A stretch of 64,000 nt of DNA from Vicinamibacteria bacterium (lineage in GTDB: Bacteria; Acidobacteriota; Vicinamibacteria; Marinacidobacterales; Marinacidobacteraceae), in contig OZ219815.1 of NCBI GenBank assembly GCA_964291235.2, forward strand, positions 768,001-832,000, written 5' to 3'. The position numbers and the translations under genes are program-made. Each line of letters opens with the position of its first letter. Within the stretch, counting starts at the first letter, position 1. Of this stretch, positions 1 through 12,000 are shown piece by piece. Under the pieces are notes generated by a model. That model was not told the DNA's origin, searched no databases, and saw only the letters and a list, made by a program, of their open reading frames with translations.

Positions 1-653
1 CAGCCTGCGCCGCCCTCGAGCACGGCCACCTTGGCCGCTTGTTTGAGGCTTCCTCTCTGGCGTTTCTGCGGTTTGCGCATACGCACGCTCTGCGCCGCCG
101 CTTCCTCCACCTCCGAGATCCTCGCGAGCAACTCCTCGTGGCCGACCTTGCCCCTGGTCGCCCGGATGATCGTGCCGTAGTAGCCAGCGTTCACGCGACC
201 GGCGAGCGCTCTCGCGGCGCTTTCCGGCTTGGTTGTCAGGCCCGGCGAAACAAGCAGATTGTCGCAGATGAACACGACCTGTCCCGCGCACTCCAGGACG
301 GGCCGCATCTGCACGGCGAGCGAATGTGGGTTGTTGGCTGCGTTGGCGCGGAGGACGGCGTCCGCGTGGAGCCGCGCCTTGCGCACCAACACTGCGCATT
401 GGTTCCGGAAGGGAGCGGTAGAATCGGCCTCCAGATCGGCTTGGGCTGTGGCCTTCAGCACGCCACCGGCGTCCCCAAACGACCGTTCGAGATCGCGTGT
501 CGTCGAAACCGATCCCGCCAGCAGATCCGCCATTCCCGCACGATAGCGGGCGACCTCAGCAGCGACAGTCGCCTGCTGTCTCGCCGCCGCCATCTACGCT
601 CGCAGCCGCAGGATGAGCCCCCTGCGGTCGTCGAGGGTGTCTGCCATACTCAT
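1..653 (-). CDS. Hypothetical protein running off the left edge; possible DUF5677/HEPN-like helical protein; in-frame TAG at 596-594 immediately followed by ATG at 593
   Basis: Manual translation from ATG 653: MSMADTLDDRRGLILRLRA*MAAARQQ...SLAVQMRPVLECAGQVVFI..., open to base 1. Perfect TATAAT at 673-668 upstream. Not in the ORF track because it has no stop inside the window. The family guess rests on a weak R-x-x-L-E helix motif. Confidence 0.55.
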
Positions 654-857
654 CCTATAAGGCGTTTATTATATGCAGTTTATTCGCCCCCTTTCTTGAC
701 TTGATCCCACGGAGCCGACCCCAATTTCGGAACTTCCCGATCTGGACGCTCCGCCCCGCGGCGGATAGTGGGACCAAGCGTGGCGCTCTCCGAACGACGC
801 GCAAGCGAGGACTTGCCAACTGAATTAGGTGGAATGCGCGCCAGTGGAACCCCGTAG

Positions 858-1772
858 CTACGCCTGCGCCATACCACGATCGACGCCGTCCCTACTTTGC
901 CACTTCGCCCGTCCTGTTTGCAGGTGTGGGATTCGCAGGTATCGCTCGACATCGGCGGCCGCCCCTATTCCTCGAATTCTGCCGCAGTAGTAACACTCCG
1001 TATTTGGCTTTCGCTTAGTCGTTACACGCGGCAGATGGCCCACATAGTTCAGGAAACGCCGGGGCTTTGACGCTCCAGACACAGCCAGCATGAATTCGGT
1101 CGCAGCGAGAGAGGCGATCACCCCATTGACGGGAGACACGGCCGGGCCGGTTTCCCCGAGCGCCTCCCGAGGAACACCGTAAATCGCGGCTTGAATCTCT
1201 TGTTCCTCTTCACTAGAGAGGTATCTGCGCACGGCTTCTGGATCAAGTTGCTCCAAGCAATGAACACATCCTTCGCCGTTGACTGCTATACAAACTCGTC
1301 CGCCGTATTCCACTCCCTTCTTGATGTCGGACGCGAGATCGATGTACGGCTTGGCGTAGGCCGCGCAAAGTTCATTCAGGATGAACCGGGGCCCGTCGTC
1401 ATCGAAACAGCCAAAAACCCAATCGACTCGCTTCACAACCTCAAAGACAGGCGGCGTCACCAAGCCTGCTTTGAGTGCCGTAACCTTGATGTCGGGATTG
1501 ATCTCACCGATGTGTCTCTTGATGATATCAACCTTGGGGCTACCAGGAACCGGATCGTCATGCCTTGCGCCAACGAATCGATTGCGATTCGTGTCGTCAA
1601 GCTCTTGATCATCTGCCAGCGAAACGGAACCTACACCCATGAGAGCTAGGTGCTGGCTGAGAGCACTGCCCAGACCGCCCACGCCGATAACGGCAACCGC
1701 AGCTGACCACAGCCGGCGCTGCCCTACCTCACCAATAAGGCGAATGTTGCGGTCATACCGATCCGGGAGCAT
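858..1772 (-). CDS. ThiF/MoeB/E1-like adenylating enzyme of a bacterial ubiquitination-like operon
   Basis: RYDRN N-terminus, GVGGLG nucleotide-binding loop, DDQELDDTNRNR, GCFDD, two Zn CxxC motifs (CVHC, CYYC), PAVSPVN. ATG 1772 lies 2 nt after the JAB stop. Confidence 0.92.
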   Translation of the reverse strand: MLPDRYDRNIRLIGEVGQRRLWSAAVAVIGVGGLGSALSQHLALMGVGSVSLADDQELDDTNRNRFVGARHDDPVPGSPKVDIIKRHIGEINPDIKVTALKAGLVTPPVFEVVKRVDWVFGCFDDDGPRFILNELCAAYAKPYIDLASDIKKGVEYGGRVCIAVNGEGCVHCLEQLDPEAVRRYLSSEEEQEIQAAIYGVPREALGETGPAVSPVNGVIASLAATEFMLAVSGASKPRRFLNYVGHLPRVTTKRKPNTECYYCGRIRGIGAAADVERYLRIPHLQTGRAKWQSRDGVDRGMAQA

Positions 1773-1774
1773 GG

Positions 1775-2290
1775 TCAGTTCCAGTCCCCAAGGGAGAATC
1801 CCGTGGGTCGCCACACCGAATCCTCCGCTACCACAGCATCAAGAGCACAGGGATTCGTCGGTTCGTTCAACCAGACCAGAGCATCGAAACCGGATGGCGC
1901 GACAACGATTGCCAGGTACGGTCGGCCTCCTAGACGCCACCACATATGTGGCACGGTCTCCTGGAGCCCGAAGCGGTCCGCCTTGGAGAATCGAGCACCG
2001 AACGGACTCAAATGAGAGTGCATCTCTACAAGCGATGCGTCGAGATCCAACGCCTTCTTGATCAGGCCGATCCTAGTTGCGTCGGCCATCTCCAGGTAGT
2101 CCCCCTCCTGCCTAACGAAGTCTTTCGACTCGAGTCGACGCGTATCGATGACCTTGAAACGAGTAAGGCCATCGGTTTCGTTCCGGGTCGCGAAGAGAAA
2201 AGCGGCCTGCTCCTGTTTGCTCCCGTAAGGGAGCAGATGCCGCGCGATCTGGGCCAAGACAGCACTTTCTATCTCGAGGACTATGCTCAT
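1775..2290 (-). CDS. JAB/MPN (JAMM) metalloprotease, putative Ubl deconjugase
   Basis: N-terminal Glu (EQAAF) and HSH-x8-SKAD motif; ATG 2290 overlaps the E2 stop (ATGA). Confidence 0.85.
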   Translation of the reverse strand: MSIVLEIESAVLAQIARHLLPYGSKQEQAAFLFATRNETDGLTRFKVIDTRRLESKDFVRQEGDYLEMADATRIGLIKKALDLDASLVEMHSHLSPFGARFSKADRFGLQETVPHMWWRLGGRPYLAIVVAPSGFDALVWLNEPTNPCALDAVVAEDSVWRPTGFSLGDWN

Positions 2291-2694
2291 GCCCCCTCCT
2301 TGAGGCGCACCACGAAGCTTCGACACCAGGCGGCCAAGTTCGAACCTCCCTTGACACTCGTGGCCGGCGCCCAGTTATCAACGGTCCAAGAGAACAGGAG
2401 CCACTCTCCACGAAACGGGACGGAATTCGGTGCGCCACCTGTGCTCTGAGGGGCCACACCTCCGAAGGTTGTGGTTTGGGGCATCAGAAATCCGTAGGGT
2501 GGGGCAGACGGATAGTCCGCCTTGACAAGGAAGGCGATCGGTAATTCGTGAGTCGGTTCACCTCCGACAGTCCATCCAGGCGGGATGGCATACCTGGGCA
2601 ACAAGAACCAGTCCTCTCCACCGTGTTCGGCATGCTGAATGTCGTTGTAGATGGTATGGAGTAAAGCCAGCTCCTCCTCGATCCGTGGTCTCAC
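2287..2694 (-). CDS. Prokaryotic E2/UBC-like protein (family E-like)
   Basis: Y-x-I-P-x-G-W, DYPSAPPYG, W-x-x-F-S-W, W-x-P...N-L pattern; GTG start overlaps the Ubl stop (TAGTG); located between Ubl and JAB. Confidence 0.78.
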   Translation of the reverse strand: MRPRIEEELALLHTIYNDIQHAEHGGEDWFLLPRYAIPPGWTVGGEPTHELPIAFLVKADYPSAPPYGFLMPQTTTFGGVAPQSTGGAPNSVPFRGEWLLFSWTVDNWAPATSVKGGSNLAAWCRSFVVRLKEGA

Positions 2695-2936
2695 TAGCCC
2701 CGCTTCCACTTATGCAGTTTGCCGTAGCTACAGTTACGACCGAGGTCGACCTCTTCATCCGGACTCAGCGTCCGCTCGTTACCGAATCGATCAATCTCGA
2801 TGACTCCTTCAGCGATGTCCCAACCTCCGATCTCGGCGATCTGTTTGGCTGAAACTCTGGACTCAGGCCATGGAATCTCCTGTCCTTCGATGTTCAGGAG
2901 GCATCCTGGCACTTCAATTTGCTGTGGATCCGACAT
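2694..2936 (-). CDS. Ubiquitin-like (multi-ubiquitin-type beta-grasp) protein, 80 aa, ending ...KWKRG
   Basis: AGGAG RBS before ATG 2936; I-E-G-Q-E-I-x-W...S-A-K-Q-I...L-S-P-D-E-E-V-D-L pattern typical of multi-ubiquitin domains; C-terminal Gly; first gene of the E2/JAB/E1 operon. Confidence 0.8.
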   Translation of the reverse strand: MSDPQQIEVPGCLLNIEGQEIPWPESRVSAKQIAEIGGWDIAEGVIEIDRFGNERTLSPDEEVDLGRNCSYGKLHKWKRG

Positions 2937-3011
2937 GGCGCTGAATCTCCTTTTCGGATAAGGGTGGCTTTTTGGGTCGCTCCACTTCGCGGAACTCCCA
3001 CTGGAGGGAGG

Positions 3012-3114
3012 ATTCTCGCCAATCAGATCTGAAATGTCAAGTATCGAAACGATTCGGATGTTGGTAATACCAACAGTTTGTATGATTGACGTAAACGGGT
3101 TCGCCGGATAGACT
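3012..3114. promoter_or_regulatory. Divergent sigma70-type promoters with a central palindromic operator
   Basis: Minus strand: TTGACA (3040-3035), 17 nt, GAGAAT (3017-3012). Plus strand: TTGACG (3086-3091), 17 nt, TAGACT (3109-3114). Perfect 8-1-8 palindrome TGTTGGTA-A-TACCAACA at 3059-3075. Confidence 0.7.
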
Positions 3115-3121
3115 TTCAGCG

Positions 3122-3463
3122 ATGAAGGGCGGCCCTGGCGCCGATCTCTACGTCGCCTTCGGGAGGCTCGTGCGCCTGCACCGGAAGCGCCTCGACGGTA
3201 TGACCCAGGAACAGTTGGGCCGTCGCGTCGGATTGTCACGCCCGTCCGTCGCGAACATTGAACGCGGTCGGCAGAATGTTGCCCTCCACCAGATCTTCGC
3301 CATCGCTGAGGCGCTGCGGGTGCAACCGGCGACGCTCCTTCCCTCAGTGGTGGGGCGTACGGACAATTCACACATTGCTGACGCGCTGCCGCCCGGCACC
3401 GATACTGAGATCGCCGACTGGGCCGGAAAGTTGCTCAGAGAGAGTGCAGGGGAGAGCCGATGA
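3122..3463 (+). CDS. XRE-family HTH transcriptional regulator (CapH/ImmR-like)
   Basis: GMTQEQLGRRVGLSRPSVANIERGRQN is a classic HTH_3 signature; overlaps the downstream peptidase (ATGA). Confidence 0.92.
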   Translation: MKGGPGADLYVAFGRLVRLHRKRLDGMTQEQLGRRVGLSRPSVANIERGRQNVALHQIFAIAEALRVQPATLLPSVVGRTDNSHIADALPPGTDTEIADWAGKLLRESAGESR

Positions 3464-3984
3464 GACGACCGCGAACTGCCGCAAGAATTCGGCCGTTGGC
3501 TAAACAGTTACTCGAAGAGTGTGCCATTTTTCGGCCTCCGGTACCAGTCGACGAACTTGCGCGAATACGCGGCGCTCGAATTCGATACTCCCCGTTTGAC
3601 GGGGAACTTGCTGGCATCCTGATTCGGGACGAGAGCAACACGATCATCGGCGTGAATTCGCTGCATCACACTAATCGACAGCGCTTTACTATCGCCCACG
3701 AACTCGGTCATCTCGTTCTACACAAAGGTCGCGTGCATATTGATCGGTCGTTCCGCGTCAATCGCCGCGACGCAATTGCGGCTCAGGCCACAGATCCAGA
3801 GGAAGTAGAAGCTAACCGCTTCGCTGCGGAATTACTGATGCCGCTCAGCATGATCACGAGCGACCTAGCGGACTGCATTGATATAGAAGACGAACAAGAG
3901 CTGAAGGCTCTAGCGCTCAAGTATCAGGTGAGCCTGCAAGCGATGACTCATCGAATCACGAATCTGCTCGATGATCTGTTCTGA
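3460..3984 (+). CDS. ImmA/IrrE-family Zn metallopeptidase (CapP-like)
   Basis: RQRFTIAHELGH and EVEANRFAAELLMP motifs. Confidence 0.93.
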   Translation: MRRPRTAARIRPLAKQLLEECAIFRPPVPVDELARIRGARIRYSPFDGELAGILIRDESNTIIGVNSLHHTNRQRFTIAHELGHLVLHKGRVHIDRSFRVNRRDAIAAQATDPEEVEANRFAAELLMPLSMITSDLADCIDIEDEQELKALALKYQVSLQAMTHRITNLLDDLF

Positions 3985-4289
3985 CTGGTCGTTCTTCGTT
4001 AGCTTCACCCGCCGCTGCACGAATCGCTTCGCCATCGTTCCTAGCCGTCCAATGGCACCCGAAGGGAAGGCTCATCGGGGCCGAGCGCAACCGGTGAGCC
4101 TTGACGCGCCTGCGCTTCAGTCTGCCGCGACGATTCCGGCTGGGGCTTAACCCCTGGGGCAGTTCGTCGGCTCGGGCCCGAGGGGATGATCCGCTCGGGT
4201 CCGAATTCCGTCGGAAGCGAAAAGCGGGCGTTCTTCCTGACGGAGAAGGGCTGACCGGCGCTCGCGGACCTTGAGACGCCTGCGCCGGA

Positions 4290-4545
4290 GTGGGACAGGC
4301 CCCGGAACTCATCATGCGGCGGCGGCTCTCCCTCGACTACGTCCTCGAGCACCCCGACCTCGGCTGGCTCCCCACCGAGCCGGAGAAGGTGGCCTACTTC
4401 CAGGCCCTGGGCATCCCGGTCGCCACCCTCCCTCGCCGCGACTATCGCGGGCCCGTCTCGCAGCGCTCCACCCGGCGTACTTCGCGTTCAAGCTCCCCGT
4501 CGCCGGCGACGGCACGACCACGACATTCGTCTATACCGCGACGGG
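4290..4545 (+). pseudogene. Frameshifted fragment of a hypothetical protein, probably mobile-element associated
   Basis: RRLSLDYVLEHPDLGWLPTEPEKVAYFQALGIP...LPRRDYRG continues in another frame as YFAFKLPVAGDGTTTTFVYT after an apparent 1-nt loss near 4478; truncated at both ends. Confidence 0.55.
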
Positions 4546-4593
4546 CGGCCGCCGCCGGCTGCAGCGTGAGCGGATCCGCAGAAATCGTGCCGA

Positions 4594-4964
4594 GGTGGAG
4601 GCGGCGGGAATCGAACCCGCGTCCGAAAGCCTTCCGCAACGACGTCTACATGCATATCCAGGTTGTGGCGAGAACCCGCGCCCGGAGGCGCCTTTCCCAC
4701 TTTCGGGCCCGCGCCGCATCAACCCGGCGAATCGCGGCTCGGTCCCTATCCCTGAGGCTTACCGACGGCTCGGGAAGGCCGCCGGCAAAGCCCACCTAGT
4801 CGACGTCCTTTCCCGCCCGGTAGGCGTGGTCAGGAAGGACGTGGCTTAAGCAGCCAGTGCCAGATCGTTGTTGGCGTTTGTGTTTGTTTCCACCGTTTAC
4901 GAGAGGTGGACCCCCGACATGCAATCGTTACTTCATGTGCCTTCGTCGAACCCAGTACGCCCCC
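4594..4964 (-). ncRNA. ssrA: tmRNA; tag peptide (A)ANNDLALAA*
   Basis: 5' GGGGGCG...GGTTCGAC; 3' GCGGGTTCGATTCCCGCCGCCTCCACC; acceptor stem with G3-U pair; internal ORF gcc aac aac gat ctg gca ctg gct gct taa (4876-4847). The terminal A of CCA is not encoded. Confidence 0.97.
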
Positions 4965-5075
4965 TCCTCGCGCGAGCCAAGCGGCAATCCGAGGCCGAAA
5001 ACCGGCCCCGGCGACCGGTGGGGACACGAGCCCCGCACCAATGACCGCGTCGCGAATCGGCTAGCATTTTAGCCG

Positions 5076-7351
5076 ATGGTGAGCATGGGTTCCGCCCGCC
5101 CTCGCCCGCGGGCTCGACGTGCCCCGGTCGCGGCCGGATCGCTCCTGATCCTCCTGGCGATACCCATCGGCCAATCCGGAGCCACCCCGCCTCAGGGGCC
5201 GGAAACCCAAGCGGTTGCCGGAATCCCCTGGCAATCCCTGGCAGAACTCCCCGAGGGACTCGCCGCCGTCCGCCGCGCCGCGACCATCGAATCCCGGACG
5301 GACCGGCAGAAGGCGCTCAGCGCGATCGCCGACGACCCCGCGCTCTCGGCCCGCAGCCGGGCGGCGGCGTCGTACCGGCTCGGGGCCGACGCCCTCCGGC
5401 GCGGCCGGTGGACCGAAGCCGAAAAACGGCTCACCGCACCCGAACTCGCGGACAGTGAACTGACCGCGGACTCCCTCCATCTCCTCGGCAGGAGCTTTCC
5501 CGGCGTGCGCCGCCAGGACGGGATCACCCTCCTCCGCCGGGTTTTCGACGAGTTCCCCGAATACGGGGACCGGGACCGCCTCCGCTTCGATCTCGGACGC
5601 CGCCTCGCCCGGGCCGGATCGCGCGAAGAAGCCCTGACCCACCTGGAAGCGGCTGCCGCCGAGGGTGGCTTCACGCTCCGCGGCGAAGCGCTGGCCGCCG
5701 CCGCCGGAGCGCTCGAGCGACTCGGACGACGCGAAGAAGCCGCCCGGAAACTCGAGACCCTCTACTACGACATGCCGACCCACAAGGAGTCGCTGCCCGC
5801 GGGCCGGCAACTGTCGAACCTCTACAAGCGCTCGGACGTCAAGACGCCGTCCGCCGCCGAGAAGTACCCAAGGGCCATGCGGCGCGCCGAAGGCTTCGCC
5901 CAGGCCCGGAACTACCGAAAGGCCCACGAGAACTACCGGGAGGTCGCCCGCCGGTTCGCCAAGGCGGGCGATGCGGAACTCGTGAACCTCCGCATTGGAA
6001 TCCAGGAGCACCACCGCGGCCGCCTGAGCGCCTCGCTGCGCACCCTCGCCCGGATCAAGCGCGAAGATCTCCGGCCGGCGGCCCTCTACTACCGGGGCGA
6101 ATCGCTCCGGCGCCTCGAGCGCCGCACTACCCAGAAACGGGTCCTCGAAGAACTGCTGGCGCTCGAGCAGGAACATGAGTTCGGGGAGCGGGCGCTCTAC
6201 AGCCTCGCCCGCAGCCAGTTGGCAAAGAACGACCGGGTGGCCGCCCTGCCCTATCTCACCCGGCTCGCGGAGGCCTATCCGAACGGACAGCACGGACTCT
6301 TCGCCCGCTGGCACGTCCTCTGGGATCGCTACCGGAACGACGACCTCGACGGGACGGCCGGAGAGTTTGAGCGCGCCGCCCGTGAAAACCCCGGCGCGTT
6401 CATGGCCGGCCAGTTCCTCTATTTCGCCGGCCGCTCGCTGGAGCGAACGGGAGACCCGGAAGGCGCCGCCCGGCTCTACCGGGAGGTGTTCGTCGGCTAC
6501 CAGCACTCCTTCTACGGACGGATGGCCACGGAACGCCTCGAGGAACTGGGCCGGGCGGAATCCCTCACGAGCCCGCTGAGCGAACCCCACCGCCTCCTCG
6601 AGCGGTTCGATGTGCGGCGCACGGCGGAGGCCGAGCGGATCGAGGAGCTCTACGCCGCCGGTTACGCCGAGCGGGCTCGGGATGCGGCGCTCGCCGCGGC
6701 CCGCCGCGGGCTCCCGGACGACCCGGCGTTCGAGGCGATCCGCGGCTGGCTGCTGGCCGACGACAGCAGGAACGTTCCGGCGATCCAGGCGCTCCGGCGC
6801 GCCGCGCCGTTCCACACCTCGGCAGCCGGACAGGCGCTGCCCGACGCGTGGTGGCGGCTTCTCTTTCCGCTCGACTTCGAGGACCGGATCCAGACGCGCT
6901 CCGATCAATGGGAGCTTGATCCCTACTTCGTTGCGTCCCTGATCCGGCAGGAATCCGTGTTCATCCCGCGGACCCGGTCCCCGGTGGGGGCGCGGGGGCT
7001 CATGCAGGTCATGCCCGCCACCGGAAGGGCGCTCGCCCGGGCCGAAGGGGTGACCTTCCGGACCGCGCGCCTCTACGACCCCGGGGTGAGCATCCGTTTC
7101 GGAACGCGGTACCTGAGGCAGCTTCTCAACCAGTTCGCGAGCCGGCCGGAGCTGGCGCTCGCCGGCTACAACGCCGGGCCGCACCGGGTGAAGGACTGGA
7201 CCGACATGAACATGAAGATTCCCGCCGAGGTCTTCATCGAGGAGATCCCGTTCACCGAAACCCGCAACTACGTGAAGCTCATCATGCGGAACGAGATGAT
7301 CTACCGCCGGCTCTATCCCGAACTGGGCGAGACGAAGAAGACGGCCGGCCA

Positions 7352-7355
<4 letters not shown>
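5076..7355 (+). CDS. slt: Soluble lytic transglycosylase (Slt70-like) with TPR repeats
   Basis: IRQES, GARGLMQVMPAT, AGYNAG, IPFTETRNYV motifs; N-terminal signal and helical repeats. Confidence 0.92.
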
Positions 7356-8523
<1,168 letters not shown>

Positions 8524-8527
<4 letters not shown>

Positions 8528-10557
8528 TTCGCCGGGTCGGGCCGGCGTTCCTGGCCCTCTGGGCCGCGGCAGGGTCTGCCGCCGGGGCCCAGCCTCCCGG
8601 CTCGGCCGAACACGCGGAGGCGAGGCGCCTGCTCGATGCCGGCGACAGCGAAGGGGCCCTGCGGAGCGCCTTCGAGGCTCTGACCCGGTCCGACAGCTTC
8701 TCCCCGCCGGAATGGAGCCAGGAGATCCCCGAGGGGCGCATCGTTCTGGACGAGTTCACCGGCGCGGCCAGCGCGGTGTACCGCCTGCAGCGAGCGGCCT
8801 ACCGGGTCACGCTGGGTGATGCGCTCGCCGCGGGCGGCGACGCGGAGGGGGCGGCGCGGGAGTACCGGCGCGCGGTGGCGCTCGACCCGCGGCCGGAGAC
8901 CTGGCGCCGTCTCGCCGACCTTCCGGGGATGCCTCGCGCCGAGCGCGTCGATGCGCTCCTGCGTTCCTGGGCGCGCTCGGCAGGCTCGGACCGGGAAGCC
9001 CTCGACCTGCTGCGGACATCCGGGGCCTTCCGGACCGAAAACGCTCTGGCCGCGGCGCTGGACCGCTTCCGCTTCCGGGCTCCGGAGGCCTCCCGCCGGC
9101 GAGCCCCGGAGGGAACCACACCCTACGAAACCCCTCTCCGGGACTTGACCCTGGCTGTCGAAGGAGGCGCCTGGTCGAGTCAGCGCTCGTTCTCGGAGGG
9201 GCGATCGCTGCTTGTCTATTTTCCCGAGGCCGGCTGCCCACGCTGCGGGGAGGTGATCGACGACCTGCAGGCGGTGCTGCGGGGCCAGGGCGTGGACCTG
9301 ATCGCGGCGGTTCCCGACGCCGACCTCGCCATCCTCACCCGGATCTCCGAACTCACCGGCGCGGGCCTGTTCCAGCCGGAACCGCAGACGGCATCGGCGA
9401 GGTCGGCCCTCCGGCCCCGTCCCATCGGTCACGTGGTGCGGCGGGACACGGTCGCCTTCCGGCCCGAAGGCGACAACGCCGAAACGCTCTGGCTGGCGGC
9501 CCGGTCCGGACTCTCCGTCTGGCGCATTGCGCTTGATCCCGGGACCTCCGTCCGGCGCACCCTGGACGCATTGTTCCGGTTTCTCGACGACTCTCCGGTC
9601 GAAGGCGGAGACGCGTCGCTGGTGGAAATTCCCGACTCTCCGGAGGAAATGATCGGAATCCTCCGCGGCCTGGAAACCGGCCCCGAGCCGGTGAGAGACA
9701 TCGAGAATCGACTGCTGAACGCGGTTCGCGCCAGGCTGCGCGCGTCGAACGACCCGGCGGATCGGGGGATCTCGCTGCTCCGCGCCGCCGCCGGGCTCCA
9801 GGCCGGGGACGCGGCGAGGCTCGCGCTGCTGACCCGGATCGTGCCCCGCTTCGGGGAGCGGCTGCTCCAGGCGGCACAAGGGGTGGACGACGGTGTGGTG
9901 CGGGCGATCCCGAACGGCCGGGTACGGGTGACGACCGTCGAGGGCGCCTTCGTCATCCAGAGGGACTACGAGGCGGCCGACGGATCTCCGCTGGTGCTAT
10001 CCGGCGTGGTCCGCCCGGGAGATCCGGGAGAGCTGCGAGTGATCGAAATCGTGCCCGGACGCGCCGTGAGCGTTGCCGCAAGAGAGGAGAGCCTGGTATT
10101 CCAGCGGGAGCGGCCGGATGGCGAAACCTGCCTGGCCTGGGGGCCGCCCACCGGCCCGCTGCAGGAGGACTGCGCCGCCCACATCGATCGGGGAGCGGTG
10201 GTGATTTCACGGAGCCAGCTCGTCGCCGGAAGCGACACGGGGGAACCCAGCTACCGGTTACGGGTGGACGGCGGGCCGGAGGTTCCGGAAGTGATGGCGC
10301 TGACGGACGGGCTGACCGCTTTCGCGGCCGGCGAACTGGAGGCCGCGGATGCAGCGTTCACCCGCGCCGCGGACGCCATCGGACCGGGGTCGCCACTCGA
10401 CATGGCGGCGGTCCGGTTCAATCTCGCGATGTTGGCGGAAGCCCGAGGGGACCGCGAGGGGGCGCTCGCCGCGCTCCAGGCGATCGGGGACGCGACGTTC
10501 CCGGGGGTGCTGGAGGAGGCGATCCGCCGGCTGTATCGGGCCGGGGAGGGCGGCTGA
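8524..10557 (+). CDS. Exported hypothetical protein with TPR motifs and a thioredoxin-like CxxC segment
   Basis: Signal peptide; TPR-like LGDALAAGGDAEGAAREYRRAVALDP; LLVYF...GCPRC; 4-nt overlap with the upstream gene. Confidence 0.7.
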
Positions 10558-10568
10558 GCGCCGCCCGA

Positions 10569-10950
10569 CTAGCCGGGATTTCTTATACCTCCGCCGCAGA
10601 GATCGATGCACGATGGTTCCCCTTTCGGCGAGAACCCCACCAGCCGTGATGTCCGACAGGCACGGGAACGCCGGCCTCCAGGCCGGCACAGCCCGCCGTA
10701 GGCGGGCGGCGGGATGAACCTGGCTGGCCGGGATGGCTCCCTCTCTCGGTGAGGACCCCGCGAGCGCGACCGGCGAGGAACCGCCCGCGGCGCTACGCGC
10801 CGCTGTGCCGACCTGGAGGTCGGCGTTCCCGTGCCTGTACGCCGTCCGTGCGTTCGGGGTCCGCGTCTGACGCGTGTCTCTCGACATCATCAACAGGTTG
10901 ACGTGATCCGCACGGCACCTTGGGCCATGAGTATGAGAAATCCCGACTAA
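10569..10950. mobile_element. MITE-like element family A, copy 1 (~380 bp)
   Basis: Imperfect terminal inverted repeats CTAGCCGGGATTTCTTATAC / GTATGAGAAATCCCGACTAA; homologous in reverse orientation to 16128-16544; internal REP-like palindrome. Confidence 0.78.
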
Positions 10951-11453
10951 CCGCCCACCAGCCCGGCCACCACCCGTTCGAACAGGGGCCGGATCACTCC
11001 GCCGGCGAACAACAGACCAACGGCGCCCAGGACGCCCCACACCAGGCGACGCGTTCCGAAACTCCGTTCGAGAGACTTGTTGATCTGCGCCGTCAGTTCC
11101 AGGAGCGCATTCTCCAGTCTGTCCAGCCGGGCATCCACCGCCGCGAATCGGTGGTCGATCCGGGCCTCCAACTCGTTCGTCCGCTGCTCCGCGCGGGCAT
11201 CCACTTCGGTGAGCCGTTGATCGATCCGGACCTCCGACTCGTTCGTCCGTTGTTCCGCGCGGGCGTCCACGTTCGCGATCTCAGCCCGGAGCTCCTTGAA
11301 GTCTTCGCGGTGCTGCCGGCGAAATTCGCGAAACTCCTCGCGGTCTTCCTGCCGCTCGGCTCGGAGCACGGCGAACTGGCCGTGAACGAGGTTCAGTCCG
11401 TCCGCCAGCTTCCGGTCCAGCGCCCGGATCGCCCCCATTTCCGCGCTGCTCAC
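10947..11453 (-). CDS. Coiled-coil protein with C-terminal TM anchor (DUF1640/CCDC90-like) and 22-aa repeats
   Basis: GAGGA RBS plus GTG 11453; repeats VDARAEQRTNE(S/L)E(V/A)RID; hydrophobic C-terminus LVWGVLGAVGLLFAGGVI. Confidence 0.7.
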   Translation of the reverse strand: MSSAEMGAIRALDRKLADGLNLVHGQFAVLRAERQEDREEFREFRRQHREDFKELRAEIANVDARAEQRTNESEVRIDQRLTEVDARAEQRTNELEARIDHRFAAVDARLDRLENALLELTAQINKSLERSFGTRRLVWGVLGAVGLLFAGGVIRPLFERVVAGLVGG

Positions 11454-11515
11454 AACTTCCTCTTCGCTATCACCAAGGCCAGTATAGGGCTTATCCACCG
11501 ACTCGCCGGCGGCAA

Positions 11516-12000
11516 GGAGCGCCGGCCTCCGGCCGGCATCGCTTCGCACAGCGAAGCGAAACTCCCGAACCTGTTCGTTCCCCACGGCCGGGACCCAGTC
11601 CGTGACGGTGAAGACCCCAGCGTGCAGGAGGATCGCGCAGCGCTCCTATGCGGAGGTGTGACGATGCGCCGTCGCCGTTTGGGTGGGCGTCGTCGGGGAA
11701 GATTGAGGCAGGGAGTTTCGCGGCCAGGAGCGCCGGCCTTCAGGCCGGCATCGCTTCGCGCAGCGAAGCGAAACTCCCGAACCTGCTCGTCCCCTACGGC
11801 CGGGACCCAGTCCGTGACGGTGAAGACCCCAGCGTGCAGGAGGATCGCGCAGCGCTCCTATGCGGAGGTGTCACGATGCGCCGTCGCCGTTTGGGTGGGC
11901 GTCATCGGGGAAGAGCGAGTCTGGGAGTTTCGCGGCCGGAGGCCGCGATGCCGGCCGGAGGCCGGCGCTCCTGGCCGGCGCGCCTGGCCGGCGCTCCTGG
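11516..12000. repeat. REP/REPIN-like cluster (family B): two tandem ~211-bp units
   Basis: Units start at 11516 and 11727 with GGAGCGCCGGCCT..GGCCGGCA; internal GCGAAACTCCC...GGGAGTTTCGC inverted arms; closes with an inverted REP. Confidence 0.85.

Follow-up and report, generated by a model that had tools for sequence, protein, structure and literature searches.

A four-gene Bub-like operon with candidate tyrosine and serine nucleophiles in place of catalytic cysteines in a Vicinamibacteria bacterium

To our knowledge, Bub pathways are the only ubiquitin-like cascades known to work without cysteine. The account given by Ye et al. (bioRxiv 10.1101/2024.11.21.623953) distinguishes Type I operons, which encode BubAB (a fusion of a ubiquitin-like protein [Ubl] with an E2), BubCD (a JAB-E1 fusion) and BubE (DUF6527), from Type II operons, which encode BubA, BubBD and BubE. 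As described there, the crossover loop of BubCD contains no cysteine and has Y370 as its only invariant residue, and the substitution Y370F abolishes conjugation. In BubB the E2 catalytic position is occupied by S333, which has H335 and D299 close by; the partners in Type II are a lysine and a histidine, and conjugation is likewise abolished in the S333A/H335A double mutant. The same operons appear as row 6e in the survey of Iyer et al. 2006 (PMC1779556), whose text calls the Cys-less E2 domain probably inactive. Here, we describe a four-gene operon of this lineage found in a 64,000-nucleotide stretch of a Vicinamibacteria bacterium genome (GCA_964291235.2, contig OZ219815.1, positions 768,001 to 832,000), hereafter the window.

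The conjugation operon lies on the minus strand (window 858-2936) and consists of four closely packed genes, read from their open reading frames (ORFs) in the order Ubl-E2-JAB-E1. The genes, and the residues on which the argument turns, are as follows.

2697..2936, minus strand: Ubl gene; 80 amino acids (aa), one beta-grasp domain, TAG stop at 2696-2694
2287..2694, minus strand: E2 gene, BubB-like; 135 aa from GTG at 2694
1775..2290, minus strand: JAB/JAMM metallopeptidase gene; 171 aa from ATG at 2290
858..1772, minus strand: E1 gene, ThiF-fold adenylation enzyme; 304 aa from ATG at 1772
2391-2389, minus strand: codon of E2 Ser102, candidate nucleophile
2496-2494, minus strand: codon of E2 Tyr67
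2325-2323, minus strand: codon of E2 Cys124, non-conserved
1181-1179, minus strand: codon of E1 Tyr198, candidate nucleophile, in a 37-residue Cys-free loop
1268-1257 and 995-984, minus strand: codons of the E1 zinc cysteines 169, 172, 260 and 263

All four frames are open in the window, and their starts and stops are coupled. The GTG at 2694 is the likely start of E2, judging from its one-base overlap with the Ubl stop and from a protein length that matches most of the 46 relatives retrieved by a word-indexed search, most of which are 135 aa long. The JAB likely begins at the ATG at 2290, which overlaps the E2 stop as ATGA, and the E1 start falls two bases past the JAB stop; an alternative E1 start, GTG at 1814, gives a 318-aa ORF. 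The original prediction for this DNA had been drawn around 858-2694, a range that covers E1, JAB and E2 and leaves the Ubl gene just outside.

The best matches of all four proteins are the Citrobacter Bub proteins of known structure in the Protein Data Bank (PDB), a position shared for E1 with MoeB/ThiF. Because all four proteins are Bub/6e-like and counterparts of the Bub Tyr and Ser are present in the E1 and E2, we consider it probable by homology that the locus is a Ubl conjugation operon of the Bub/Iyer 6e lineage, in which the same cysteine-free Tyr/Ser oxyester relay would be expected. Its gene order and coupling, family relationships, conserved residues and lack of BubE can be observed directly. 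Since BubE, the Type I fusions and the Asp/His partners are all absent, the operon falls outside both described Bub types and is a simpler four-gene form, judged against the published type descriptions.

Likeness to Type I Bub (Citrobacter; "6E.1"; PDB 9ea4, 9ea5, 9ea8, 9eae and 9eav) extends to the gene order Ubl, E2, JAB, E1; an E2 of BubB fold whose predicted catalytic Ser occupies the same alignment column; an E1 in which an invariant Tyr lies on a long crossover loop devoid of Cys; shared JAB active-site residues (E27, H91, H93 and D105 as the Glu, HxH and Asp); a Multi_ubiq-type Ubl ending in Gly; CapH/CapP regulators; and a mobile-island setting. The differences are equally concrete. 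The window operon is without BubE/DUF6527, and it has four separate genes where Type I has the BubAB and BubCD fusions. Its Ubl has one beta-grasp domain, whereas Citrobacter BubA has three; in its E2, Tyr67 replaces Asp299 and the +2 His is missing; and its E1 keeps four zinc cysteines, the first pair of which has no Cys counterpart in the aligned Citrobacter BubCD. With Type II Bub, as Ye et al. outline it, the window operon shares the logic of a Cys-free E1 Tyr and E2 Ser, together with a Multi_ubiq-type Ubl. Type II differs in having a BubE and an E2-E1 fusion with a DUF6791 E2, and a JAB is usually missing from it; the window operon includes a JAB, and its E2 belongs to the Prok-E2_E/BubB kind.

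More distant systems share single features. The Bil (bacterial ISG15-like) Type I/II operons have the same four-gene content of Ubl, E2, JAB and E1 and no E3, but Bil E2s are described as using Cys, whereas the window enzymes are without a conserved catalytic Cys; moreover, the Bil E1 joins tandem adenylation domains to a Cys domain, and the window E1 is a single 304-aa ThiF domain. MoeB and ThiF resemble the window E1 in core fold, zinc tetracysteine and size, and they are its best PDB sequence matches. They have no E2 or JAB partners and are typically accompanied by MoaD/ThiS and biosynthetic genes, their crossover loop is short and carries a Cys, and their alignments break at the 37-residue Cys-free loop of the window E1. 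Inactive E2-like domains of the UEV/RWD kind have a UBC-like fold without catalytic Cys or HPN motif, as the window E2 does, but the family of the window E2 keeps an invariant Ser at the catalytic position.

Candidate nucleophiles of the E2 and E1

The window E2 has a single Cys (C124 in 135-aa numbering, within AAWCRSF of the last helix) and no HPN motif, and Ser102 lies in LFSW, all as first noted. A hidden Markov model (HMM) scan of a representative library placed 257 clusters in the E2 family at E<=1e-3, of which 153 still matched at E<=1e-10 and 19 at E<=1e-30. Among 151 sequences aligned to the family model, the Ser102 column shows 130 S, 2 P, 1 A and 18 gaps, and the Cys124 column is C in 4/128, with V, A, I, L or T in the remaining 124. 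When 64 full-length, diverse E2s with 25-51% identity to the window protein were aligned with MAFFT, Ser102 was the sole invariant column. Pfam Prok-E2_E matches 41 of these 64 (best E 2.4e-17).

The family divides into two subtypes. Asp67, Ser102 and His104 occur together in 14 sequences (Asp type); in all others Ser102 is accompanied by Tyr67, and position 104 varies (Tyr type). With Tyr67 and Thr104, the window E2 is of the Tyr type and lacks the Asp partner and +2 His of Type I Bub. A quick maximum-likelihood tree (123 rows, midpoint root, with Shimodaira-Hasegawa-like approximate likelihood ratio [SH-aLRT] support only) groups all 103 Tyr-type rows with the window and two unlabelled rows (SH-aLRT 99); Asp-type and DUF6527-linked rows fall outside. 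At 103 of the 123 representative clusters in the tree, the Tyr type is possibly the commonest Prok-E2_E form. Five relatives of 341-367 aa (P0188, P0217, P0250, P0263 and P0266) have a Tyr-type E2 domain C-terminal to ~220-240 residues and are probably poly-Ubl-E2 fusions of BubAB size, with Tyr replacing Asp. Plasmids yielded an E2 relative in 1 of 72,556 records, at 32.8% identity.

Comparisons at the level of profile and fold lead to Citrobacter BubB. The 64-sequence E2 profile finds it in the PDB at E 1.1e-9, and the Asp-type profile does so at 2.3e-11, with its D, S and H falling on D299, S333 and H335. Three E2s from genomes of the window's phylum, encoded ~1.6 kb from a DUF6527 gene, read W-Q-R-W-S-R-H with the S in the Ser102 column; because these DUF6527-linked W-S-R-H proteins align there, we place Ser102 in register with S333. 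An AlphaFold2 model of the E2, with a mean predicted local distance difference test (pLDDT) of 91.9, has BubB (9eae_C) as its best fold match by Foldseek (template-modelling scores 0.67/0.71, E 4.5e-4) and aligns with BubB by VIA at Z 13.5 with a root-mean-square deviation (rmsd) of 2.7 over 122 residues. The next matches, UEV domains and ordinary E2s, score Z 8-9.7.

The E1 matches Pfam ThiF at E 2.5e-39. Its complete list of cysteines comprises residues 122, 136, 161, 169, 172, 260 and 263, and none lies between the first zinc motif (C169-V-H-C172) and G209-P210, a segment that reads LEQLDPEAVRRYLSSEEEQEIQAAIYGVPREALGETGP; this claim of the original prediction stands. We examined conservation in the window protein plus 63 aligned of 120 listed relatives, drawn from 1400 proteins at E<=1e-10. 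Tyr198, Gly199 and the four zinc cysteines are invariant in all 64 E1s, and 63 of them are without Cys between CxxC and G-P, the Cys of the one exception occupying a variable position. The second tyrosine of the loop, Y184, is replaced by F or W in 6 of the sequences. A 37-residue stretch free of Cys is by itself unremarkable by chance; what goes beyond chance is the conservation of Tyr198, of the absence of loop Cys and of Ser102.

In the E1 domains of Asp-type operons (27 sequences), the same loop contains a G-Y without variation. The profile built from them matches BubCD at E 3.3e-44 and sets this G-Y on the R-G-Y at chain residue 372, which we read as Y370 because the chain carries two extra N-terminal residues. 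When alignments of the window family and the Asp-type E1s are compared with hhalign, the probability is 100, with E 1.4e-68 and 38% identity. The alignment of BubCD with the E1 family profile is continuous through the crossover loop, whereas those of MoeB/ThiF stop at the first CxxC and resume past the loop, with ~12 chain residues set against 34 profile positions. The AlphaFold2 model of the E1 (pLDDT 89.5) builds the loop as two short helices (178-185 and 188-198) followed by a low-confidence stretch, in agreement with the description of the ordered BubCD loop by Ye et al. In fold rankings, the five BubCD entries are at the top (Z 28.7-29.5, 253-270 residues aligned), and ThiF/MoeB reach Z 27-28 (rmsd about 2.0, 226-231 residues aligned), so that BubCD aligns ~40 residues more. 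A PDB search with the loop region alone (window 993-1325) returned chance matches only. As to the zinc site, all four cysteines occur in the window E1 and its relatives and at least three in Asp-type E1 domains; Citrobacter BubCD is without Cys opposite the first CxxC in its alignment with the Asp-type E1 profile.

These results agree well with what had been proposed from the DNA. The oxyester chemistry cited there for Bub pathways matches the account of Ye et al., with its crossover-loop Tyr in the E1 and Ser in the E2. The two residues put forward as candidate nucleophiles, the Tyr of IYG and the Ser of FSW, correspond to Tyr198, the invariant Tyr of a BubCD-like loop, and to Ser102, which aligns with BubB S333. 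Residue conservation, one of the checks suggested at the time, came out in favor of the proposal (Tyr198 in 64/64, Ser102 in 130/133, Cys124 in only 4/128), and the predicted E2 and E1 models best match the BubB and BubCD folds.

The JAB, the Ubl and related operons

A scan for related loci, with one genome taken per species, returned 20 loci spanning Alphaproteobacteria, Burkholderiales, Verrucomicrobiota, Acidobacteriota, Myxococcota and others. The Ubl-E2-JAB-E1 order is kept in 19 of them, and JAB and E1 are separate genes throughout; in one locus (L014) the E1 is interrupted by a contig end, and another (L024) shows only the Ubl and 57 E2 residues. The Ubl ends at a stop codon in 16 loci, in 14 of which the stop and the E2 start share one base, and in the other four (L016, L019, L022 and L023) it continues into the E2 after KRG plus one residue.

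The JAMM motif of the window JAB is intact (E27, H91-S-H93, S102 and D105), and its Ubl already ends in Gly (K-R-G80, then TAG), as the original prediction held. Residues E27, H91, H93, S102 and D105 of the JAB and K78-R79-G80 of the Ubl are invariant across the 20 operons. Searched against the PDB at E<=0.1, the JAB family profile finds nothing but Citrobacter BubCD, whose JAB domain it matches at E 0.0056 and whose E, HSH and D it places opposite its own. Because even operons whose Ubl requires no maturation have retained the active site, the JAB of the split form is probably a deconjugase that takes the Ubl off targets. In the four loci where the Ubl is fused to the E2, the JAB must on this reasoning also act as a maturase, cutting the precursor after KRG. 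The earlier view of the JAB as a deconjugase and not a maturase thus appears reasonable for the window and the 16 loci with a free, Gly-ending Ubl, and would not extend to the four fused ones.

A wider set of Asp-type operons was collected from metagenomes, 80 loci being kept of 127 (L025-L104). They form a sister group whose E2 has the Asp/Ser/His triad of Citrobacter BubB, and their JAB and E1 share one frame, as in BubCD, in 41 of the 45 loci that yielded both.

Our search for BubE extended to flanks of 5-7 kb, and many metagenome contigs are short. Within this reach, PF20137 (BubE/DUF6527) was not found among 126 flanking ORFs of 18 Tyr-type loci or among the 62 ORFs that follow E1 in 25 metagenome loci of the Asp type, and a custom HMM built from 16 DUF6527 proteins gave 0 matches at E<=1 in six-frame translations of L004-L104 and window 1-12000, which covers 100 related loci. 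Since the Asp-type metagenome loci show no DUF6527 in the fetched flanks, Bub-like operons without BubE are not confined to the Tyr type. The Bub catalogue, according to its companion preprint, was drawn from operons containing DUF6527. Our literature search found no account of a BubE-less or Tyr-type variant; the related works were the Corbett-lab Bub preprints, the CapK/CapS paper and Iyer 2006.

Among 401 genomes of the window's phylum, DUF6527 occurs in 17 and an E2 of the window's family in 10 (one of them an unpublished genome), the window genome giving by far the strongest E2-family match (4.0e-40). The same genome contains, 470 kb from the window (G000:C1:1236869-1240045), a canonical Type II Bub operon. 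It encodes a Multi_ubiq Ubl (1.6e-13), a 396-aa E2-E1 fusion (DUF6791 5.8e-47, plus ThiF) and a DUF6527 BubE (1.7e-26), the latter being the only DUF6527 gene of the genome above cut-off. Therefore, with the window operon, two different cysteine-free conjugation systems coexist in one genome, and the BubE of the Type II operon might act in trans on the window Ubl. Whether the window operon and its relatives make up a third, uncatalogued Bub-like class, with no BubE, with the JAB as sole peptidase (maturase/deconjugase) and with the Ser paired with an invariant Tyr67, is a question on which we regard the two answers as evenly balanced.

Counterevidence and rival explanations

Several observations weigh against assigning the operon to the Bub lineage and its chemistry. 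Pfam recognizes the small proteins poorly: Multi_ubiq matches the Ubl at E 1.1e-4 and 22.8 bits, under the 24.5-bit cut-off, Prok-JAB matches the JAB weakly (E 0.0089, 16.3 bits, cut-off 25), and the window E2 has no match above family cut-offs. Prok-E2_E (PF14462) fails to match the window E2 even at E<=10 and matches 41 of the 64 aligned relatives mentioned above. The preprint text says that bubE occurs in all Bub operons, and PF20137 was found neither in the window operon nor in its flanking ORFs. The residues presumed to activate the Ser in known Bub E2s (Asp and His in Type I, Lys and His in Type II) are absent from the window E2, and P or A replaces the Ser in 3 of the 133 relatives with a residue at that column. 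The 64-sequence profile alignment set Ser102 opposite S337 and not S333, a pairing that we rejected in view of the ungapped S333 pairing given by the Asp-type profile and the W-S-R-H sequences. For the E1, sequence scores favor MoeB/ThiF over BubCD (1.2e-19 vs 1.1e-8 for the window protein, 3.8e-24 vs 2.8e-18 for the family profile); hhalign sets the Tyr of the two E1 families three residues apart, in different columns of a gapped loop; and residues 199-210 of the model are uncertain (mean pLDDT 58), so that the reach of Tyr198 cannot be judged from it. Finally, in the preprint's account, phage protection was found for no Bub operon.

The E2-like protein could instead be a dead UEV/RWD adaptor, with the E1 alone adenylating the Ubl and the Ubl reacting with targets or with a partner encoded elsewhere. 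Iyer et al. put this reading forward for 6e operons, whose Cys-less E2 domains they considered probably inactive, and both the fold matches that rank next behind BubB, which include the Tsg101/Vps23 UEV domains (Z 9.0-9.7), and the sole Pfam match of the window E2 at an E cut-off of 10 (UEV, E 0.087) are in keeping with it. A dead adaptor, however, would not keep one Ser as the only invariant residue across 64 diverse sequences, and Ser102 is homologous to BubB S333, a residue altered in the S333A/H335A mutant that, by the account of Ye et al., is unable to conjugate. We therefore consider a dead adaptor very unlikely. Less credence still goes to an ordinary thioester cascade built on non-canonical cysteines, E2 Cys124 together with one of E1 Cys122, Cys136 and Cys161, which we regard as highly improbable. 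The window E2 does possess one Cys, and the three E1 cysteines are at least 90% conserved. But 124 of 128 relatives have V, A, I, L or T in place of Cys124, the E1 cysteines sit in the Rossmann core (E118-121, H126-138 and E156-164 of the model), outside the crossover loop, and a counterpart of Cys122 is kept in Asp-type E1s too.

Two further explanations concern the operon as a whole. It might have decayed or fallen silent on an old island and conjugate nothing any longer, given an island without detected integrase or attachment (att) repeat and downstream genes that belong to no family and lack conservation in related loci; yet its four frames are open with coupled starts and stops, and the window copy retains every residue that the family alignments show as invariant, which makes erosion very unlikely in our judgment. 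The remaining possibility, and the one we find least credible, is a sulfur carrier system of the MoaD/ThiS type, with an E1 that only adenylates and a Ubl converted to a thiocarboxylate for cofactor or metabolite synthesis. The ranking of MoeB and ThiF as best PDB sequence matches of the E1 and the retained zinc tetracysteine speak for it. Against this stand the absence of a crossover-loop Cys and of a rhodanese domain, a neighborhood in which no biosynthetic genes were seen, the conservation of an E2 and a JAB in the operon, regulators of the defence type, and the mobile context of related loci (integrases, ArdC, TraG and MobA). We accordingly retain the cysteine-free Tyr/Ser relay as the preferred reading of the locus.

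Regulators, genomic setting and proposed mechanism

The operon is transcribed away from a divergent pair of genes that resemble capH and capP. The features of this region are as follows.

3122..3463, plus strand: capH-like helix-turn-helix (HTH) repressor gene; Pfam HTH_31/HTH_3 ~3e-12, PADLOC capH 1.5e-9 and control protein 1.9e-12
3460..3984, plus strand: capP-like M78 (IrrE-type) metallopeptidase gene; Pfam Peptidase_M78 1.5e-22, PADLOC capP 3.9e-36
3012..3114, no strand: putative divergent control region with both promoter-like sites and a palindrome; consensus matches only
3040..3012, minus strand: operon promoter-like site, TTGACA-17-GAGAAT; consensus match only
3086..3114, plus strand: capH promoter-like site; consensus match only
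4594..4964, minus strand: transfer-messenger RNA (tmRNA) gene, by ARAGORN; flanks the low-GC insert that carries the operon

A perfect 17-base palindrome, TGTTGGTAATACCAACA, lies at 3059-3075 between the divergent promoter-like sites. It was found by a terminator scan and a script and was not reported by the repeat search; we put it forward as a candidate CapH operator. Palindromes of the form CAAAC-N-GTTTG occupy the matching place, just upstream of a TTGACAT box, in three related loci with a short CapP (L005, L007 and L015); in two others (L008 and L009) a TTGACAT/TTGACT box is present and a perfect palindrome absent.

The preprint of Ye et al. counts CapH and CapP beside 168 of 544 Bub operons. 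Among the 18 related loci with usable flanks, an HTH and/or M78 gene lies upstream in 14: both are recognized by Pfam directly upstream in nine, L023 has an M78 gene by Pfam and an HTH gene by tblastn, and four more have one of the two. In L013, L017, L018, L020 and L022, the HTH gene is paired with an M78 gene encoding 306-387 aa and not ~175 aa, which suggests that a second class of CapP-like regulators, with longer proteins, accompanies this type of operon. Genes for integrase, ArdC, TraG and MobA/TraI are found near related loci.

The window operon is carried by a low-GC insert next to the tmRNA gene, in the region of window 1-4590 and L004:15000-18900. GC content is 0.53-0.61 in window 501-4000 and 0.54-0.62 in the last 3 kb of L004, vs 0.65-0.72 beyond position 4000. 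A direct repeat of the tmRNA 3' end was not found within 22.5 kb (best match 13 bases, E 0.047), and L003 contained no direct repeats. The four ORFs downstream of the window E1 (300, 190, 250 and 430 aa) include no integrase, match no Pfam family and have no counterpart in the 20 related loci.

Reasoning from Bub of Citrobacter and E. coli, from which we infer adenylation, the two oxyester steps, lysine targets, the role of the JAB and control by DNA damage, we propose the following scheme. A homodimer-type ThiF-fold E1 would adenylate Gly80 of the 80-aa Ubl, and Tyr198, on a long flexible crossover loop, would attack the adenylate to give a Ubl~Tyr oxyester. The E1 loop would then hand the Ubl to Ser102 of the BubB-like E2, forming a Ubl~Ser oxyester from which the E2 could transfer the Ubl to target lysines without an E3. 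In the split form, the JAB/JAMM peptidase would reverse conjugation, and where Ubl and E2 are one polypeptide it would cut after KRG. CapH probably keeps transcription repressed until CapP relieves the block after DNA damage, a mode of control that would fit a mobile stress or anti-phage function.

The basic picture of cysteine-free conjugation is unchanged by this locus, the mechanism having already been published for sister families. What it adds is that the same Tyr/Ser pair of E1 and E2 exists in a wider set of operons without DUF6527, that the four conjugation functions can be separate genes, and that the predicted catalytic serine can sit in other chemical surroundings, where a Tyr replaces the Asp and the His is missing. 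If our reading is correct, Tyr67 at the position of BubB Asp299 would represent a different route to a reactive serine oxyester, and the operon would offer a minimal four-protein system in which to study the activation of an oxyester E2, the task of a JAB where no maturation is needed, and the extent of cysteine-free conjugation among bacteria.

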